Positions 189 to 37,907 of a DNA stretch of 37,907 bases are shown one piece after another. This stretch comes from a virus: the UHGV virus genome UHGV-1993895; one strand, given 5' to 3'. The translations under genes and the position numbers were made by a program. Numbering within the stretch: the stretch's first letter is position 1; every line of letters starts with the position of its first letter. The notes under the pieces were generated by a model, which was not told the origin of the DNA, searched no databases, and saw only the letters and a program-made list of their open reading frames with translations.

Positions 189-1112
189 TCAGTAGTTATG
201 TACTGAAGGAGGTAATTCTTTGTTCTTAAGTCTTATCCATGCTGAAAGGTTTGTTGGTCCGTCTGGCTCATTAATATCAACATCTCGTGTATGGTTGATT
301 AAAACATCTCTCGCCATATCGATAATACGGGAGAACTCATAACCGCAGTCATGACATCTGCCGGAATAGTTCGATTGAATTTGTTTTAGCGCCGGATACA
401 ATTCGCGGAATAATGCCTGTGAGCGGTTGGCATAATCCCATAGCCATACAAGGCTGTTTGCTTCTTTTGCAGAAAGCTCGTTGGTTTTCTTCTCTTGTTT
501 GCCAATGAACTCACCTTCAAGCGGAACTCGAGCTGCAAGTGACAGTGCTTCGGTAAACTGCTCCTCACTGATTTCTTTGTATGAACATCCAAAATGGGAT
601 TTCAGTGACGACCACATGGTGATCATCGCCTTAGCCTGTTTTTCCTTTGGCAGAGACTGACCGCGACTCATGACGAGTTGTTTAATGGCTTCCTGCTGTT
701 CAGTGGTGATTTTACCCGGCAACGCCTTTTTAGCTTTGCGTGGGTTAACTACATGACCTTTAGTCCAGTACTCGTATAGCACATCGTCACACTCTTCCTG
801 ATACTGGATTACCTTGTCGCGGATTTCAGGACGGACTTTGTTTGGCTGAATGCTTGAAAGCCAAGCCGCAAACTTACGAAAGGCAAGGCATATCATTAAC
901 TGTTTACCGCCAGCAGAAGGTATTTCGATTTCCGAAATACCTTTGACAAATCTCTGTTTTAATTTAACAAATTGAGCAGCCCAAACCATACCCATGCCTT
1001 CTACAACGGGTTTCATAGGAACGTAAGGTTCATTGTTAATGCTGACCAAAAAGAGATTTGTTCCGTGGAATGGAACGTTGATTGTATGTTCTGCAATTGC
1101 TACACTCGTCAT
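189..1112 (-). CDS. ant: Antirepressor Ant
   Basis: 307-aa ORF; position downstream of arc in an immI-type locus; length and sequence character of P22-type Ant. Confidence 0.8.
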   Translation of the reverse strand: MTSVAIAEHTINVPFHGTNLFLVSINNEPYVPMKPVVEGMGMVWAAQFVKLKQRFVKGISEIEIPSAGGKQLMICLAFRKFAAWLSSIQPNKVRPEIRDKVIQYQEECDDVLYEYWTKGHVVNPRKAKKALPGKITTEQQEAIKQLVMSRGQSLPKEKQAKAMITMWSSLKSHFGCSYKEISEEQFTEALSLAARVPLEGEFIGKQEKKTNELSAKEANSLVWLWDYANRSQALFRELYPALKQIQSNYSGRCHDCGYEFSRIIDMARDVLINHTRDVDINEPDGPTNLSAWIRLKNKELPPSVHNY

Positions 1113-1946: not shown

Positions 1947-2666
1947 ATGAAAAAAAGCAATGGACTCACATTAAAACTTGACGGAACCACCCCTGGCCAG
2001 CTGTCAATGGCTAAGTTGGTCAAGTATATGTCTGCTCTCGTAGATCTATACGGTTCTGCAGATTCTGTTCACTTCGACTGTGTAAGTGAAGGATCGGCTG
2101 ACTTAAATGCATGGGTCGATAATGATATTTGTTATAACGCTGTCATAGCAAGGGCCTCTCTCTCAGCCAAAGAGAAATCACCCGCGTATCAAAAAATTGT
2201 TAATTTACTGGAACATGATGGTTTTTCAGCGAAACTACTCGGACGAAACCACTCAACCATTATCGCATTCCCGCGAGTAAAAAAGGAGCCAATCCCTTTA
2301 CTCATAACAAAAACATCAGAAGTTCAAGGAAGGCTATACAGTGTTGGCGGAAAAGACAATTCAATACCTGTGCGTATTGAGGGAGCCAACGGCGAAACAT
2401 TCAAGTGCGAGGCAACCCCTGATTTGGCGGCAGCTCTTGGGTCCCATCTATTCAAATATATTAGGGTTAAAGGAGATGGGTGCTGGGAAAAAAAGAACAA
2501 CAAATGGGAGCTAAAGAAACTAAAAATAACTTCATTTGTATTGCTCAAAAAATCATCACTCAAGGATGCTATTAATGCTATCAAGCAAGTTCCTGGAGAT
2601 CAGTGGTCCGAGGAACGCGATGTTGATTCAATCCTTAGGACTCTGAGGAAGATAAATTGCGAGTAA
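1947..2666 (+). CDS. Hypothetical 239-aa protein, first gene of accessory cassette
   Basis: ORF 49 nt downstream of and co-directional with mnt; 10-nt overlap with the following PIN gene; AT-rich by eye; no recognisable domain. Confidence 0.6.
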   Translation: MKKSNGLTLKLDGTTPGQLSMAKLVKYMSALVDLYGSADSVHFDCVSEGSADLNAWVDNDICYNAVIARASLSAKEKSPAYQKIVNLLEHDGFSAKLLGRNHSTIIAFPRVKKEPIPLLITKTSEVQGRLYSVGGKDNSIPVRIEGANGETFKCEATPDLAAALGSHLFKYIRVKGDGCWEKKNNKWELKKLKITSFVLLKKSSLKDAINAIKQVPGDQWSEERDVDSILRTLRKINCE

Positions 2667-3205
2667 TTTTAGATACCAATATTCTGGTATACCTACTATC
2701 AGATATAGAACACGATTATAGATTATCTGACCCTATACTTGGTTCTGAGATTCCAGATGCCAAAAGAAGAGCAGAAGCTCTTGTTGATCGAATAGATAAC
2801 AAGAACGGGACAATCATCGTTCCAACTCCTGTATTGGCGGAGTTTTTAGTTGGAATCCATAAAGATTACCAACAAGAAAAACTGAATGTTATCAAATCGT
2901 TATCGTGCTTCGAAACTGTATCGTTTGATGAGTTGGCTGCTATTGAATGCGCATCGATACCAACATTAAAAGAATTAAGGAAAATTAGCACAGAAGGTAC
3001 AGCAAACAAAATTAAGTTTGACAGACAAATAATAGCAATTGCAAGAGCAATTAATGCTGACGAGGTATGGACTCATGATAAGGGAGTGTTTGAGCGTTGC
3101 AAAAGTCTCAATATTCCTGTGTTCACATTATCATCAATAGAACCAATTCCGGTTCAAAGTCTCATGGAGTTCTTACACGATTCAGACGATCAGAGATTAC
3201 ACTAA
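2657..3205 (+). CDS. PIN-domain (VapC-like) predicted nuclease
   Basis: N-terminus MRVILDTNILVYLL with Asp6, central acidic residues and a C-terminal THD motif fit the PIN fold; 182 aa; translationally coupled to the upstream gene. Confidence 0.6.
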   Translation: MRVILDTNILVYLLSDIEHDYRLSDPILGSEIPDAKRRAEALVDRIDNKNGTIIVPTPVLAEFLVGIHKDYQQEKLNVIKSLSCFETVSFDELAAIECASIPTLKELRKISTEGTANKIKFDRQIIAIARAINADEVWTHDKGVFERCKSLNIPVFTLSSIEPIPVQSLMEFLHDSDDQRLH

Positions 3206-3221
3206 AATATAATTTTTATGC

Positions 3222-3249
3222 ATCCGTGATAATTACATCCGTCACGGAT
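3222..3249. promoter_or_regulatory. Inverted repeat between the PIN gene and the third cassette gene
   Basis: ATCCGTGA ... TCACGGAT arms (8 bp) including a 13-bp palindrome ATCCGTCACGGAT; no T-run. Confidence 0.3.
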
Positions 3250-3332
3250 ACATAAAGCTATAGCCAAAAGTGGACAAACCTTTATCTCACTCCAAACCAT
3301 CTGGTATCCTGCGCAAAACTAAGGAGGTTGGT

Positions 3333-3755
3333 GTGTTTGGTATATTAACGAGAAGCAAGATAAAAAAATTAAGGGCAGAACTCGCCGAAACACAAAAACT
3401 GGCTTCACATTTTTACAAAATGAAATACGACGCTGAAGAGCGTGCATTTGTTGAGTTATGCGATTTATCTATTCGTATGGGAGTAGAGCCAGATGTAGCG
3501 GCAAAAACCCAACAAGGCATTGATATACTTGCAGATGTTGTTTTAAACAGGCAATATGCGTTTTATCTAAACGAGAAGGCCATTCAGATTTACTCTCAAA
3601 TCTTCCTCCTAGAAAAAAGAAGAGGAACTCACGATCGAGAAGAGTGGTTAAATGAAGTTGTTAAAAAATCTGGCTGGGAAGTTGTTTCATCAGAGCTACC
3701 TCTTATTTGTGCTGATTTAATCGAAGAGGCAAAAGAGCGCCTATCCGATGGCTAA
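3333..3755 (+). CDS. Hypothetical soluble protein, third gene of accessory cassette
   Basis: GTG start 5 nt after a strong AAGGAGG RBS (3321-3327); ORF track gives a longer version from 3270; no TM segments, so not SieA-like. Confidence 0.5.
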   Translation: MFGILTRSKIKKLRAELAETQKLASHFYKMKYDAEERAFVELCDLSIRMGVEPDVAAKTQQGIDILADVVLNRQYAFYLNEKAIQIYSQIFLLEKRRGTHDREEWLNEVVKKSGWEVVSSELPLICADLIEEAKERLSDG

Positions 3756-3779: not shown

Positions 3780-5903
3780 TTACTCCCGCTCCATTCCGCT
3801 TAGCGATGCCACAATCCCAGCCCTCGCTAAGCGCTGAAACTCTTCGTTTCCGACGGTATCACGTATCGCTTTTACAGCAGCTTTATTTGCCATAAATCTG
3901 CGTTCAGCCGCCGCTAATGCACCATCACTTGCCCCAACCTTAACTGCCTTTGTTGCCTCTTGAACAGCCTTTTCAATAGCGTAACGACCACTGCGGGATG
4001 CAGCTAACTTTTCTATCGTCCCTTTAGCTATAGATCCAGAAACAGCCCCCACAACACCGCCAACAATCCCTCCACCAGTGGTGCCAACAATAGCCCCTGA
4101 TGTTGAATTGCCTATTGCATTGAGAACTGTCATGACAGCTTTTGGCAGTCCTTGCTCAAGAGAGTTAATTGCCGGTATAGAGCGCCCCGTATGCTCTACA
4201 TATCGCAGTGGTCTGGTTGCTGCTCTGGCAAGGTCGCTGTATGCCCTAGCAATCTTACCCATTTCTGGCGAGTGCTTGCTAATGGCAGTAATATTCTGCG
4301 GCGTAAGGATCGACGCTATATGGAATACGCCAGCAGACTCTGATTTACCGCCACGCCCCCCTTGCGATACCGCATCTTGTAATATTGATGCAATTGCTGG
4401 AGATCGCTCAGACTCTGGCAGTGCGCCAATAATCTGATGAAACTTTCCTGTCCCACTTTTTGATGAATTTTGCAAGGCTTTAATACCATCAGTGACTAAC
4501 TGATCAGTTGCAAGGTTTCTAAACGCTGCTTCAGCCTGTTCTTGTGCTGTAAATCTTGCTTTTGACAGATCATTAGCTTTTTGCCAGTCATCAAGAAAAC
4601 CGCCATTTTGAGCCATTATGCGCATATCTTCCGTTGCTGCATCACGAAGCTCCGCCATGCGCCTTGCCGTATTTGCCTCACCAGACCTTATATACTTCTG
4701 CTCAGCGTCAGCAAGTTTACTTCGCCATGCCTTCATGGCATCAAACGTGATTCCTTTTTTACCAGTTTTAGCATAAGCAGATGCAAATTGTTTCATCTCA
4801 GGAGTTAGCGGCATACCAGCCAAAATATCACCCTGAATTGTAGCGTTCAGGTTTGACATTCTGGCCTTTGCGTCAGGCATCGTGGAGCGGACGCTATCCC
4901 ATGCTGCCTTTTCTGAGTTCTTCATTTTATCAATACTTGCTAAAACCCTTTGTTTTATGGCTGCACTTTTTTCTGATGCAGATCCAGCCTCAGCACCAAG
5001 TTCATCAAGTGCTGAGTGGAATTTCGACTGTATTTCACTAAAAGCCCTAGTATGTGCATCCTGAACAATTCCTGGTTCGGATGCCAATATCCCTTCGGCT
5101 TGTGCAATTCCACGACTTCCAGATCGCATTCCTGGTGTTAATGCGTTTATATCAATTCCAGCAGACTCAGCCGCTTTTGCTACATCTTCGGACACATTAG
5201 CGGCCTGACTGGCAATTGACTGACGCCCAGCACCTGACTTTGCCATCCTGGAAACATCATTAGCAGAATTCAGTGCTGCACCACCAAGAGCCTGTGAAAC
5301 CCTTGGCGCAATAACGCGCCCGACACCAGAAAGAACGCCTTGAGCACCAATATTGACACCACCGTTAATGGCAGCATTTTGTGCAAAGTTGCCATCCTGA
5401 TTTGCAGCATCAGCAAGAGAACCTGCAATCATGTTTCCTGCGGAACCGATATCTCCAGCGAGCTTTGCTGGCGCTCCAGCAGCTTTTGCCGCTGTGCCAA
5501 TTGGCAGGAGATACCCACCAATTGTTTCACCGGCTTGCGCGTAAGGGTCTGTCGGTCGATCGACTGGACGATAGACATCATCCAATACTTTTGGCCCACC
5601 AAGCCCATGACTGATTGCATTAATCAGACTTGCGCCACCCTGCAATACGTCAAATGGTATGTTTACCAGACCACGACCAGCCTGTTCTGCAATTTGCCCT
5701 GCACTTTGACCACCTGTGAGCCAATCGCCAGCTTGTTGCATCAATGATGGTTCTTCACGTGCTGGTTCATTATTGGCCTGATTAACTGTTTGTTGCTGAA
5801 CAGCCTGACCAGCAAAATACTCATCAATGGCGGTGCCAATATCTTCGGTGCTCGTACCATCAGGGAAGGTAAATGTCTTACCGTTTGCAGTTACTTTCAT
5901 CAT
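3780..5903 (-). CDS. Ejection (E) protein, P22 gp16-like
   Basis: 707-aa Ala/Gly-rich protein, last gene of the ejection-protein block by synteny. Confidence 0.65.
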
Positions 5904-23698: not shown

Positions 23699-23835
23699 AG
23701 GTGAGCCGTGTAGTTGAAGGTTTTTACGTCAGATTCTTTTGGGATTTGCTTGCGTTTATTTCTGGAGCGTTTCGTTGGAAGGTATTTGCAGTTTTCGCAG
23801 ATGATGTCGGTGATACTTCGTCGCTGTCGTCTCAT
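23659..23835 (-). CDS. ninE: NinE
   Basis: [29 protein letters not shown], lambda NinE-like; internal ATG chosen (ORF track starts at 23895); start overlaps the ninB stop. Confidence 0.7.
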
Positions 23836-24272
23836 GCCGCCCTGTCTCCCCATCGCGCTTTCCATTCCAGAGCCAGTCTCGCTTCGTCTGACCACTTAAC
23901 TCCACGCTCTGTACCGAATGCCTGTATAAGCTCTAATAGCTCCGCAAATTCGCTTACACGCATCCTGCTGGTTGACTGGCCTATTACCACAAAGCCATTC
24001 CCGGCAAGGTTAGGAACAACATCCTGCTGCTTTAATGCTGCGGTAAACACACACTTCCAGCTTTCTGCATCCAGCCAGCGACCATGCCATTCAACCTGAC
24101 GAGAGACGTCACCTAAGCAGGCCCATAGCTTCCTGTTTTGGTCTAAGCTGCGGTTGCGTTCCTGAATGGTTACTACGATTGGTTTGGTTGGGTCTGGAAG
24201 GATTTGCTGTACTGCGTGAATAGCGTTTTGCTGATGTGCTGGAGACCGAATTTCAAAGGTTAGTTTTTTCAT
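23832..24272 (-). CDS. ninB: NinB (Orf-family recombination mediator)
   Basis: [64 protein letters not shown] recognised as lambda NinB; start at internal ATG. Confidence 0.85.
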
Positions 24273-24290
24273 GACTTCCCTCTCCCCCAA

Positions 24291-24319
24291 ATAAAAAGGC
24301 CTGCGATTACCAGCAGGCC
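24291..24319 (-). terminator. Hairpin terminator directly after the HNH-AP2 gene (possibly bidirectional)
   Basis: GGCCTGC-loop-GCAGGCC stem with T-runs on both sides (TTTTTAT on minus, TTTATCTGTTTTT on plus). Confidence 0.4.
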
Positions 24320-24320
24320 T

Positions 24321-24932
24321 TTATCTGTTTTTAACACGCTTTCGAGTCCTTTTAGATTTTTCCTTAAGATATTCCGCAAGTTTATCCTCATCATTATTAA
24401 ATTGAGATAAAAGCTCATGCTCGCAATTAAGTGCTTTACTCGCATAAGTTCCATATAGTTTCTTTCTTGCTAGTGCTGCTATGAATGCTGCATCTTCTTT
24501 GCTATCGAAATACCCTAACGATATTGTCTTATTTTTATAACCAACATAAGACTTCCACCTGCCAGTTGGCTTATACCAAGACACTCCAATTGCACCGGAT
24601 GTGTTTAATCTATTCCCTACAATGTTTCTTGCATTCTGCTCTTCTGTTGCCAGTCTTAGGTTTGAAATCCTATTGTCAAGTCTGTTCCCATTTACATGAT
24701 CAATAAACTTAGGAGGCCATTTTTTGTATACATAGAACCAAGCAAGTCTATGCGCCTTATACAAAACATTGTTTATACTAATGCATATATAACCACCACT
24801 AACACCTCCAGCAATACTACCTTTTACTCTTACTACTGAATTTGTTTTTAGCCATTTAAATATTCCTGTTTCTGAGTCATATGATAATGTTGACAGAAGC
24901 TCATCGTGATCAATTAGTTTTTTTATTCGCAT
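24321..24932 (-). CDS. HNH homing endonuclease with C-terminal AP2 DNA-binding domain
   Basis: HRLAWFYVYKKWPPKFIDHVNGNRLDNRISNLRLAT (HNH) then GVSWYKPTGRWKSYVGYKNKTISLGYFDSKEDAA (AP2-like); strongly AT-rich. Confidence 0.75.
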   Translation of the reverse strand: MRIKKLIDHDELLSTLSYDSETGIFKWLKTNSVVRVKGSIAGGVSGGYICISINNVLYKAHRLAWFYVYKKWPPKFIDHVNGNRLDNRISNLRLATEEQNARNIVGNRLNTSGAIGVSWYKPTGRWKSYVGYKNKTISLGYFDSKEDAAFIAALARKKLYGTYASKALNCEHELLSQFNNDEDKLAEYLKEKSKRTRKRVKNR

Positions 24933-25013
24933 AAAGAATATACTTAATAATATATACAGTAAGAACCATTAGTAACGATAACCCTGCTATTAACTCAGTG
25001 ATGTAGATGGTCA

Positions 25014-26465
25014 TCAGAATCCTCCTTTCTTCTTGGACTGCGGTTCCTCGCGTTCACGGCGGCGCATTTCAGCAGACTGTTGGTCTGTGTCATAAATAGC
25101 GCCATTTGCCTGAATGCAATACACAGTGCCGGTATTGCCATGACGATTGAGACGAAGGATTAGTTCAGTTTCACCAGGTGGAACACTGTCATCAAAAGCG
25201 CCTTCACGATGGATCCCGACCCAATAATCGCAATCCTGTTCAATCTGCCCTGTATCTCGTGAGTCACTTGGTAATGGGCGTTTATTGGTTCTGCTTTCCA
25301 GTGCGCGGTTAAGCTGCGTCAGAAGCACAACAACGCAATCAAGCTCTTTGGCAAGGTTCTTCAGTCCTTTGGTGATCATGCCGTAAGCAAGATCGTTGCG
25401 ATCGGCCTTCTCAGCAGTCATTAGTGTCAGGTAATCGACCAGAATCATGCCAACACATCCTTTTTCTCGCTTGATTCGACGGCTTTCGCTGACGATTTGA
25501 GCCAGAGATAATCCCGGCGTGTCGTCGATGTAAAGCAGGTCGATTTCACTCAAGCGATTGGCTGTTTCGATCGCCCTGTTGAAGTCACCATCGTAATCAC
25601 CCTGATAGCCGTCATCAGCGTCATTTGTCGCCGGAAGGTAAAAAATATTCGGGTTAACACCTGACTTCTGTCCCACCAGTTTTTCCAGTATCTGGTCACC
25701 TGGCATTTCAAGGCTGAACATCAGAGCGGGCTTTTTCTCATGCACTGCGCAGTTGATTGCCATCTGGCTGTATAGCGTCGTTTTCCCCATCTTAGGGCGA
25801 GCGCCAATGACAAACAGAGAGCCTTTCACCAGACCTTTCGGTGACAGCATCCTGTCCAGCGATGGGATCCCTGTGCTCATTCCTCGTTGTTCACCTGACG
25901 GGTCAAATCGCTTCTCAAGGTCGCTAACCCAGTCTTCCATGACCTCACCAAATGAGCGAAGGCCGCGACGCGATCCGGTTTTTGCATGGTCTGTCAGTTG
26001 CGTGAAAATAGCCTGAATAGCTTCGTACTTCTGCGTTGCAGTCATTCCGTTGCGGGAATAGAGCAATTCCATCGCTTCAGTCATGCGGTTGATGGCGTAG
26101 CGTTCCATTGCGGTTTCACGAACCTGCATTGCATAGGCAACGATGTTTGCTGCGCTTGGCGTGTTCTTTGCGATCTCAGCGATATAAGCAAAACCGCCAA
26201 CAGACACCGTTAACGATTTGCGCTCCAGTTCATCGAAAAGCGTCAGGCCATCTACTGGCTTTTGCTCCCGGTGCATTCTGGTTATTTCTTCGAAAAGGAT
26301 TTTGTGTGGTCGGCTGTAAAATGAATCGGGCTTCAGCATCGCCAGAACTTTCTGGACGCGCTCACTGCTGTCATCATCCAGAAGCAATCCACCAATCACC
26401 GCCTGCTCTGCCTCGATGCTATGGGGCGGCGCATAAAAATTATCGGTCATCGTGTTCACCCTCAC
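25014..26465 (-). CDS. Replicative DNA helicase (DnaB family)
   Basis: N-terminal PPHSIEAEQAVIGGLLLD, Walker A GARPKMGKTT, Walker B LVDYL; alternative start at MTDNFY (26450). Confidence 0.85.
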   Translation of the reverse strand: MRVNTMTDNFYAPPHSIEAEQAVIGGLLLDDDSSERVQKVLAMLKPDSFYSRPHKILFEEITRMHREQKPVDGLTLFDELERKSLTVSVGGFAYIAEIAKNTPSAANIVAYAMQVRETAMERYAINRMTEAMELLYSRNGMTATQKYEAIQAIFTQLTDHAKTGSRRGLRSFGEVMEDWVSDLEKRFDPSGEQRGMSTGIPSLDRMLSPKGLVKGSLFVIGARPKMGKTTLYSQMAINCAVHEKKPALMFSLEMPGDQILEKLVGQKSGVNPNIFYLPATNDADDGYQGDYDGDFNRAIETANRLSEIDLLYIDDTPGLSLAQIVSESRRIKREKGCVGMILVDYLTLMTAEKADRNDLAYGMITKGLKNLAKELDCVVVLLTQLNRALESRTNKRPLPSDSRDTGQIEQDCDYWVGIHREGAFDDSVPPGETELILRLNRHGNTGTVYCIQANGAIYDTDQQSAEMRRREREEPQSKKKGGF

Positions 26466-36659: not shown

Positions 36660-37907
36660 CTATATTGCTGAAGGTACAGGCGTTTCCATAACTATTTGCT
36701 CGCGTTTTTTACTCAAGAAGAAAATGCCAAATAGCAACATCAGGCAGACAATACCCGAAATTGCGAAGAAAACTGTCTGGTAGCCTGCGTGGTCAAAGAG
36801 TATCCCAGTCGGCGTTGAAAGCAGCACAATCCCAAGCGAACTGGCAATTTGAAAACCAATCAGAAAGATCGTCGACGACAGGCGCTTATCAAAGTTTGCC
36901 ACGCTGTATTTGAAGACGGATATGACACAAAGTGGAACCTCAATGGCATGTAACAACTTCACTAATGAAATAATCCAGGGGTTAACGAACAGCGCGCAGG
37001 AAAGGATACGCAACGCCATAATCACAACTCCGATAAGTAATGCATTTTTTGGCCCTACCCGATTCACAAAGAAAGGAATAATCGCCATGCACAGCGCTTC
37101 GAGTACCACCTGGAATGAGTTGAGATAACCATACAGGCGCGTTCCTACATCGTGTGATTCGAATAAACCTGCATAAAAGACAGGAAAAAGTTGTTGATCA
37201 AAAATGTTATAGAAAGACCACGTCCCCACAATAAATATGACGAAAACCCAGAAGTTTCGATCCTTGAAAACTGCGATAAAATCCTCTTTTTTTACCCCTC
37301 CCGCATCTGCCGCTACGCACTGGTGATCCTTATCTTTAAAACGCATGTTGATCATCATAAATACAGCGCCAAATAGCGAGACCAACCAGAAGTTGATATG
37401 GGGACTGATACTAAAAAATATGCCGGCAAAGAACGCGCCAATAGCATAGCCAAAAGATCCCCAGGCGCGCGCTGTTCCATATTCGAAATGAAAATTTCGC
37501 GCCATTTTTTCGGTGAAGCTATCAAGCAAACCGCATCCCGCCAGATACCCCAAGCCAAAAAATAGCGCCCCCAGAATTAGACCTACAGAAAAATTGCTTT
37601 GCAGTAACGGTTCATAAACGTAAATCATAAACGGTCCGGTCAAGACCAGGATGAAACTCATACACCAGATGAGCGGTTTCTTCAGACCGAGTTTATCCTG
37701 AACGATGCCGTAGAACATCATAAATAGAATGCTGGTAAACTGGTTGACCGAATAAAGTGTACCTAATTCCGTCCCTGTCAACCCTAGATGTCCTTTCAGC
37801 CAAATAGCGTATAACGACCACCACAGCGACCAGGAAATAAAAAAGAGAAATGAGTAACTGGATGCAAAACGATAGTACGCATTTCTGAATGGAATATTCA
37901 GTGCCAT
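36660..37907 (-). CDS. MFS transporter, LacY/oligosaccharide:H+ symporter-like (host gene)
   Basis: 415 aa, about 12 TM segments; motifs shared with LacY (FHFEYGTARAWG, FDQQLFPVF); start codon is the last three bases of the window, so the true start may lie beyond. Confidence 0.8.
   Translation of the reverse strand: MALNIPFRNAYYRFASSYSFLFFISWSLWWSLYAIWLKGHLGLTGTELGTLYSVNQFTSILFMMFYGIVQDKLGLKKPLIWCMSFILVLTGPFMIYVYEPLLQSNFSVGLILGALFFGLGYLAGCGLLDSFTEKMARNFHFEYGTARAWGSFGYAIGAFFAGIFFSISPHINFWLVSLFGAVFMMINMRFKDKDHQCVAADAGGVKKEDFIAVFKDRNFWVFVIFIVGTWSFYNIFDQQLFPVFYAGLFESHDVGTRLYGYLNSFQVVLEALCMAIIPFFVNRVGPKNALLIGVVIMALRILSCALFVNPWIISLVKLLHAIEVPLCVISVFKYSVANFDKRLSSTIFLIGFQIASSLGIVLLSTPTGILFDHAGYQTVFFAISGIVCLMLLFGIFFLSKKREQIVMETPVPSAI

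Follow-up and report, generated by a model that had tools for sequence, protein, structure and literature searches.

Which kind of element occupies the interval between the replication gene P and ninB in some lambdoid prophages of Escherichia coli, and does it bring a transcription terminator of its own that acts on the downstream genes ninB-Q? The question is raised by a stretch of 37,907 nucleotides (UHGV virus genome UHGV-1993895, hereafter the window), which represents an HK620/Sf6-like P22-type E. coli prophage adjoining a LacY-type host gene. A preliminary description of this DNA had proposed a self-contained homing endonuclease cassette of HNH and AP2 domains in the nin region, followed by its own hairpin terminator. 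It had further suggested that the cassette could affect read-through into ninB-Q and that the prophage carries two unrelated homing endonucleases.

The HNH-AP2 gene and its product

The gene (24321..24932, minus strand) is a 612-nt ORF with an ATG start that encodes 203 amino acids. It lies between helicase gene and ninB as described, and Pfam matches back both flanking genes. Upstream is the replication gene P, a DnaB-type helicase of the HK022/HK620 type (25014..26465, minus strand; DnaB_C, E 3e-60), and downstream is ninB, encoding an Orf-family recombination mediator (23832..24272, minus strand; ATG at 24272; E 1e-54). The protein is composed of an N-terminal β-sheet region (residues 1-57), an HNH_3 domain (58-102), an AP2 domain (114-161) and a basic helical tail (165-203). 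The HNH_3 domain is matched by Pfam with an E-value of 2.9e-15, and the 203-aa protein matches PHROG 99, annotated as 'HNH endonuclease', with an E-value of 1.3e-71. A search of NCBIfam found no family match, and a sequence search of the PDB returned marginal matches (E 0.003-0.23).

The Pfam match to AP2 scores 28.7 bits, which is below the gathering cut-off of 33.3. As this score is sub-threshold, an AlphaFold model was built from 96 homologues and its fold was searched against the PDB with Foldseek. The model has a mean pLDDT of 89.8, and its residues ~114-163 superimpose on plant AP2 domains with an rmsd of 1.1-2.1 Å, including TEM1 (7et4_D; rmsd 1.1 Å, 48 columns) and AtERF1 (1gcc; TMt 0.70). 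The fold match backs the sub-cut-off Pfam score, and the C-terminal AP2-type domain of the preliminary description is, judged from the model, present as a separate DNA-binding module. The N-terminal sheet and the HNH core superimpose on I-HmuI of phage SPO1 (1u3e; probability 1.00, 109 columns), and D78, H79, N91 and N100 align with D74, H75, N87 and N96 of the DH...N...N motif of I-HmuI, while the sequence similarity of both proteins is marginal (E 0.23). Unlike the gene in the window, I-HmuI is intron-encoded; it is a strand-specific nickase and carries a C-terminal helix-turn-helix instead of AP2. In the alignment of the 96 homologues the residues D78, H79, N87, N91, R93 and N103 are invariant. 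The HNH catalytic (ββα-metal) motif is intact, and the protein is apparently an active nuclease joined to a predicted sequence-reading AP2 domain.

Other functions were considered for a protein of this composition. Phage AP2 proteins can be transcriptional silencers (bioRxiv 10.64898/2026.02.23.707548), and the protein might be an AP2-domain DNA-binding repressor with a vestigial HNH part, comparable to plant AP2 factors or to the anti-CRISPR proteins called CasPR. CasPRs were described from Bacillota prophages (bioRxiv 10.64898/2026.02.23.707548), the CapR domain is absent from the HNH-AP2 protein, and the HNH motif is both intact and invariant across the homologues; on these grounds the repressor reading was rejected as very unlikely. 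PADLOC returned a weak match to a generic 'homing endonuclease' model and no match to a defence system, and a defence-system reading was dropped. Packaging cofactors of the HNH type are widespread in cos phages, which speaks for a terminase cofactor in DNA packaging, as with HK97 gp74. The gene, however, is part of the early nin region and is separated by ~6 kb from the genes of the terminase (16486..17898 and 17895..18335), in a prophage that is P22/HK620-like, and its domains are HNH_3 and AP2 and not a packaging-type HNH. HK620 and other close relatives with identical structural genes do not carry the gene. The position in the nin region and the viable HNH-less relatives contradict a packaging HNH of the HK97 gp74 type, whose likelihood we consider negligible.

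The cassette and its insertion point

The phages HK542 and mEp234, whose P and ninB are 97-98% identical to those of the window, lack exactly 665 bp at this position, and their alignment to the window stops at 24324 and restarts at 24983. The inserted cassette was placed at 24318..24982 (minus strand), with borders that are uncertain by 3 nt as AGG is found at both ends, and it consists of a 50-nt leader, the HNH-AP2 ORF and 3 nt. With a GC content of 0.34, compared to 0.50 in P and ninB and 0.46 in the whole window, it is strongly AT-rich, as had been stated. The insert interrupts ninA, an ORF of 26 codons that is intact in HK542, one base ahead of the stem of the hairpin tR2: the 30 nt of the ninA leader end up on one side of it, the tR2 stem from its first base on the other, and the core stem is unaltered. 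The empty ninA/tR2 site has the sequence ATGACCATCTACATCACTGAGCTAATAACAGGCCTGCTGGTAATCGCAGGCCTTTTTATTTGGGGGAGAG, and its junction reads, in transcript orientation, ...GAGCTAATAACAGG|CCTGCTGGTAATCGCAGGCCTTTTT..., while the occupied allele shows the upstream junction ...GAGTTAATAGCAGG|GTTATCG... and the downstream junction ...AACAGATAAAGG|CCTGCTGG....

Both parts of ninA can still be recognised. The retained 5' part (24983..25014, minus strand) makes up the presumed target site's left half, and no other upstream sequence is common to all cassette contexts. The displaced 3' part (24269..24317, minus strand) includes tR2 and ends in a stop codon that overlaps the ATG of ninB; an ORF at 24269..24454 terminates in the displaced ninA 3' peptide. 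The retained part continues into a fusion ORF of 34 amino acids, ninA' (MTIYITELIAGLSLLMVLTVYIIKYILYANKKTN; 24910..25014, minus strand), which the record of HK022 lists as HK022_56. Its first 32 nt derive from the resident ninA and the remainder from the cassette leader, which leaves the ninA frame open. The ATG of ninA' overlaps the stop codon of P (ATGA) and is preceded by a strong Shine-Dalgarno sequence, AAAGGAGG. The encoded peptide is hydrophobic and ends 23 nt inside the HNH ORF. No Shine-Dalgarno sequence or otherwise recognisable ribosome-binding site was found ahead of the HNH ATG.

The cassette borders were also inspected for transposon-like ends. No transposase is present, the repeats at the ends amount to AGG alone or to an imperfect ATAACAGG/ATAA-AGG, and the terminal inverted match comprises 5 nt (TTATC). 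The AGG repeat and the 5-nt inverted match were judged to be microhomology or chance, and transposon-like ends were rejected. The cassette is minimal and compositionally foreign, and it occupies one fixed position in the lambdoid backbone.

The hairpin downstream of the gene is the lambda terminator tR2

The terminator scan detected a hairpin with a 10-pair stem and a T-run at 24295-24322, directly 3' of the HNH-AP2 stop codon, as the preliminary description had noted. The complete rho-independent terminator (24286..24322, minus strand) has the core stem AGGCCTGC/GCAGGCCT and the loop TGGTAATC, followed by the T-run. The 52 bases 24273-24324 of the window match 388 phage records with 95-100% identity and are 98% identical to positions 40591-40643 of lambda (J02459). 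The hairpin is annotated as tR2 in the records of HK620 and Nil2. It is identical in HNH-less phages, where it is located within the 26-codon ninA, the ATG of which overlaps the stop codon of P or ren and the stop codon of which overlaps the start of ninB. This layout agrees with the published geometry, in which tR2 has the NinA AUG 30 nt ahead of it and the NinA stop codon 16 nt behind it (PMC4824070). The computed folding energy of tR2 is -16.8 kcal/mol in the empty and -20.7 kcal/mol in the occupied allele, the lower stem of the latter being somewhat stronger.

The hairpin is the resident lambda tR2, which belongs to the phage backbone and lies outside the cassette; it is presumed to form the right half of the target site. 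A unit of gene and terminator, in which an own hairpin adds a transcription stop before ninB-Q, is suggested by the T-run hairpin next to the stop codon and by the block that the window has in common with phages PA28 and WGPS4, which takes in the hairpin. Against this stand the 665-bp indel, which stops one base short of the stem, and the hairpin itself, which recurs without a base change in lambda and in HNH-less alleles and carries the annotation tR2. The empty-site alleles that carry the hairpin refute the combined unit, which is highly improbable as an explanation. As the hairpin is present in HNH-less alleles and in lambda, the insertion adds no terminator before ninB-Q; the terminator cannot be called the gene's own, and the suggestion that a cassette-borne terminator acts on read-through into ninB-Q falls with it, tR2 being there with or without the gene.

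Known relatives, distribution and site fidelity

The same gene is present in phage HK022 as HK022_57, which is cited in the record of phage 1717 as NP_597900, 'putative endonuclease', and in the Stx phages PA28, 1717, Stx2a_WGPS4/6 and SH2026Stx1; in HK022 and the Stx phages it is annotated as HNH or homing endonuclease. The proteins of HK022 and the Stx phages are 97-100% identical, and their genes form the same 665-bp cassette at the same ninA/tR2 insertion point. The copies differ in the flanking modules: the window has a P22/HK620-like backbone with ninB directly downstream. Our literature search found no experimental work on any of these HK022 and Stx phage copies, and it found no publication on the HNH-AP2 gene or on a homing endonuclease at ninA/tR2.

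Site fidelity was analyzed in 28 copies, which came from 20 IMG/VR contigs, from E. coli chromosomes, from phage records and from the window itself. The ninA ATG and tR2 are 697 nt apart in all of these except for one frameshifted copy with 698 nt, and this constant spacing shows that the cassette is always inserted at one site. The copies are 95-100% identical. The cassette was found in 19 of the 388 phage records sharing the tR2 site and in 126 of 5426 complete E. coli genomes, there at 144 places with up to three per genome. A contiguous ninA/tR2 site of the empty type is present in about a third of these genomes (1885/5426). From the 126 carrier genomes against the 1885 with a contiguous site an occupancy of roughly 5% results. 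In a scan for exact 33-mers of one genome per species, which understates diverged copies, the cassette was found in E. coli only. At the protein level, 19 phage records show at least 95% identity, none falls between 60 and 95%, and 2826 are below 60%; by these sequence identities the phage copies form a tight and young clade inside a very large family.

Matched empty and occupied alleles are available on several backbones. VT1-Sakai is empty and differs from PA28 by exactly 665 bp, and many Stx1a phages are likewise empty; HK620 (empty) can be paired with HK022 and, on the upstream side only, Nil2 (empty) with WGPS4. The junctions of the 665-bp indel are identical in at least three backbone pairs. 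The gene is neither uniformly present nor host-like in composition, and with its exact absence from close relatives it is a discrete cassette of the homing type, foreign in appearance and sporadic in occurrence, which supports the initial view.

The contexts of the cassette are diverse. PA28 and WGPS4 belong to other genera with flanks unrelated to those of the window, and the DNA that the window has in common with either is confined to 24268-25015, with 99.3-99.7% identity. Six upstream classes were distinguished, namely the HK022-type DnaB-like P, a second DnaB analogue (WGPS4/Nil2 type), lambda-type P with ren, a Toprim primase-helicase, an mEpX2-type small ORF and one more. Together with ~7 downstream classes they make up 14 combinations in 21 fully flanked loci. 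The P-ninB interval is itself variable, as it contains ren in lambda and PA28, a 270-nt ORF in mEpX2 and, in HK022, three small ORFs after tR2. The varied contexts could also come from nuclease-free mosaic recombination of lambdoid phages in the short ninA/tR2 linkers, a possibility that weighs against homing.

Homing as the probable explanation

The element is probably a homing endonuclease gene, free-standing and of the HNH-AP2 type, with the conserved ninA/tR2 junction as its target. At the level of sequence it appears to possess the features of a free-standing HNH homing endonuclease gene. A precise presence/absence polymorphism exists at a fixed site between close relatives, and signs of horizontal spread are present, both in the deviating GC content and in the cassette being more alike than its flanks. 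The combination of HNH and AP2 is established as an architecture of homing endonucleases, and GC-rich DNA is favoured by AP2 domains, both according to PMC10448857, which cites Magnani 2004. Cleavage and homing by the protein are what we infer from these features; a search of the literature found no cleavage or homing data for the HNH-AP2 protein. The AP2 score below the Pfam cut-off and the missing ribosome-binding site of the gene also count against homing.

In the proposed course of events the gene would be transcribed from pR within the O-P-nin transcript, during lytic growth or after induction. As the HNH ORF has no Shine-Dalgarno sequence of its own, its translation would be at a low level and is probably coupled via the overlaps P to ninA' to HNH. 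The enzyme would then bind the ninA/tR2 junction where it is uninterrupted, in a lambdoid genome that lacks the HNH gene and replicates alongside; there the AP2 domain might contact the GC-rich hairpin stem or the G-run, and the HNH domain together with the N-terminal sheet the ninA leader. It would nick or cut the empty junction, and repair by RecA or by the phage functions RecT and NinB would copy the cassette over from the carrier genome. Both RecT and NinB are encoded in the prophage and are candidates for the repair step. The occupied allele would be immune, because the half-sites are placed 665 bp apart.

Comparable genes are known from other phages. PMC10448857 describes an HNH-AP2 family including the 'IPA-HNH' genes of the Vibrio phage ICP1, which likewise have an N-terminal HNH and a C-terminal AP2 domain and are likewise free-standing, beside replication or other phage core genes. 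In contrast to the protein of the window, which matches HNH_3 with an E-value of 3e-15, the ICP1 proteins are reported there to be too divergent for this Pfam domain (PMC10448857). Unlike the ICP1 genes, the gene of the window resides in temperate phages of the lambdoid group and is linked to a micro-ORF with a terminator inside. The Seg and Mob genes of the T4 type are, in the same source, likewise selfish genes that lie between or near other genes and are present in some close relatives but absent from others, and spread by break-induced gene conversion is assumed for the free-standing homing endonuclease genes of T4-type phages (PMC10448857). The Mob proteins of T4 combine HNH_3 with a zinc finger (PMC10448857), the protein of the window with AP2. 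For T4 genes the co-conversion of flanking markers is documented, whereas none was detected for the cassette: in the last 900 nt of P no SNP specific for occupied alleles was found, in a small sample of three occupied and four empty alleles with heavy background recombination.

The missing co-conversion tract in these alleles is one of the points in favour of a passive accessory gene ('moron'), which would have entered once and would later have been reshuffled by ordinary recombination, mediated by Red, RecT or RecA or illegitimate, at the ninA/tR2 linkers of ~30 nt (ninA) and ~30-60 nt (tR2). The nuclease would then be kept for another job, such as damage to competing phage or host DNA. All 28 copies have one and the same junction, which documents one primary insertion event, as this reading has it, and the cassette is situated in the known variable slot between P and ninB, at the place of the exclusion gene ren in lambda. 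Selection on the copies fits as well: 23 of 24 complete cassette copies encode the full 203 amino acids, 15 of their 23 variable sites are at third codon positions, and the pairwise pN/pS is ~0.2. These values show that the copies are under purifying selection, which speaks for homing too and is compatible with any useful function. On the other side, the domain architecture is that of homing endonucleases, the cassette is minimal with 50 nt and 3 nt around the ORF, and the PADLOC result described above gives a weak homing endonuclease match and no defence system. The upstream homology across contexts is limited to ~30 nt. Recombination without assistance would have little to work on there, and still the upstream classes number six. 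We regard the passive accessory gene as unlikely, and a homing endonuclease gene at the ninA/tR2 junction as the probable identity of the element. It is an ordinary selfish gene of an already-annotated kind.

The second HNH gene of the prophage

The prophage carries another HNH gene (10757..11341, minus strand; 194 aa), which combines NUMOD4 with HNH_3, has genes 4 and 10 of P22 type as neighbours and is missing in HK620. The presence of two such genes, as claimed in the preliminary description, is confirmed by this; that they are unrelated does not hold in this form, as the Pfam domain HNH_3 is common to both. Otherwise the two proteins are alike only in the HNH motif, with 9 of 27 residues in common, and their DNA-binding modules differ. 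The two nucleases are better described as independent acquisitions of the same enzyme class.

Possible consequences for read-through at tR2

The insertion could affect tR2 in another way than by an added terminator. For tR2 at its position 30 nt into ninA it was reported that translation lowers the termination efficiency by only about 10%, and that a stop codon 5 bp upstream of tR2 reduces it from ~90% to <10% (PMC4824070). In the occupied allele the tR2 hairpin starts directly after the TAA of the 612-nt HNH ORF. If the insertion affects read-through at all, a weaker tR2 is the likelier direction, because the HNH stop codon abuts the hairpin in a geometry that represses tR2 (PMC4824070). Given sufficient HNH translation, the insertion may have rewired tR2 into a translation-gated, leaky terminator in carriers, a possibility that we regard as distinctly unlikely. 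Such rewiring is relevant only with limiting N antitermination, and its size depends on the translation of HNH.

Significance of the locus

The main value of the analysis is one of clean-up, as a routine selfish element with existing annotations was separated from its supposed own terminator, which is tR2. The insertion site, with the ninA leader on one side and the tR2 stem on the other, is defined to the base, and matched empty alleles are available. The empty site of 70 bp is the obvious first cleavage substrate for this uncharacterised HNH-AP2 enzyme. The cassette marks a junction at which lambdoid replication and nin modules reassort, as seen from the 14 flank combinations. This fits the idea that nuclease genes are found at the boundaries of genetic exchange, as put forward in PMC10448857, and it makes the junction relevant to the diversification of Stx phages. 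As a by-product, a testable link emerges between the HNH stop codon and tR2. If the rewiring of tR2 holds true, ninB-Q would be expressed partly independently of N in carriers of the cassette, and the timing of Q, and hence toxin expression, could shift in cassette-bearing Stx phages. The selfish gene would then double as a regulatory switch, which could also account for its intact copies.

Insertion slots between P and ninB

Comparison of window positions 24273-24279 and 25014 with L001 1713-2501 of phage HK022 and L007 1015-1284 of phage mEpX2 shows at least three distinct insertion slots between the helicase gene P and ninB. The slot between the P stop codon and the ninA ATG holds a 270-nt ORF in mEpX2, the slot within ninA and ahead of the terminator hairpin tR2 holds the HNH gene of the cassette, and the slot between tR2 and ninB is filled by three small ORFs in HK022 and by other ORFs in PA28 and W284. 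The ninA frame is kept open by the cassette leader (window 24910-25014), forming the fusion ORF ninA', in which the 16-residue native ninA tail is replaced by GLSLLMVLTVYIIKYILYANKKTN, so that the tail is hydrophobic again. This fusion ORF is open in the copies examined and shows conservative changes, e.g., V to A and L to F in W284. The open ninA' frame may either preserve NinA function or serve translational coupling only.

Altered copies of the cassette

Among the 24 complete cassette copies only one is clearly broken, namely that of the IMG/VR contig 648276659_000002 (L023), in which the A7 run (codons 3-5 of the HNH ORF) is longer by one A, and the resulting frameshift leaves an ORF of 7 codons. 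Split "AP2" and "HNH" halves are annotated in a few E. coli genomes (H112, H119, and H120). The Stx2 phage 1717 (L004 3212-5653) carries an ISEc8 element within the 5' leader of the cassette, at the equivalent of window 24973-24983, so that P and ninA' no longer adjoin the HNH gene. The segment 24973-24983 aligns to both flanks of ISEc8, and the resulting repeat of approximately 11 bp looks like a target duplication.

The endonuclease gene of the Logan contig SRR10380363 (L011 5920-6520) is a chimera. It matches the window base for base over ninA' and the first ~200 nt of the HNH ORF, and the remainder is a different HNH and AP2 C-terminal part of higher GC content, fused in-frame (171 aa, 63% identical overall). 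Upstream lies a Toprim primase-helicase; the chimeric gene overlaps rusA and tR2 is absent downstream of it. This structure indicates recombination within the endonuclease gene itself.

Other regions of the prophage

The second HNH gene of the prophage (NUMOD4 and HNH_3; window 10757-11390, GC 0.42) is located between the P22-type genes 4 and 10 and is missing from HK620. About 93 nt of the HK620 gene 4/gene 10 junction (L015 7962-8054) match each side of this insert, and therefore the target flank is duplicated; the identity to HK620 is 98.6% on the gene-4 side, whereas it is only 91.8% on the gene-10 side.

At the window end, 36660-37907 encodes a LacY-type sugar symporter (Pfam LacY_symp, E 1e-193), which appears to be host DNA, and the window is therefore a prophage with a boundary near 36 kb. 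The plus strand also carries ORFs in window 1947-3755, with the antirepressor-like gene (189..1112) on one side and the tailspike gene (3780..5903) on the other; among them, one encodes a PIN-domain protein of 182 aa (2657..3205), and 1947..2666 and 3270..3755 gave no Pfam match. These ORFs may constitute toxin-antitoxin or defence cargo.
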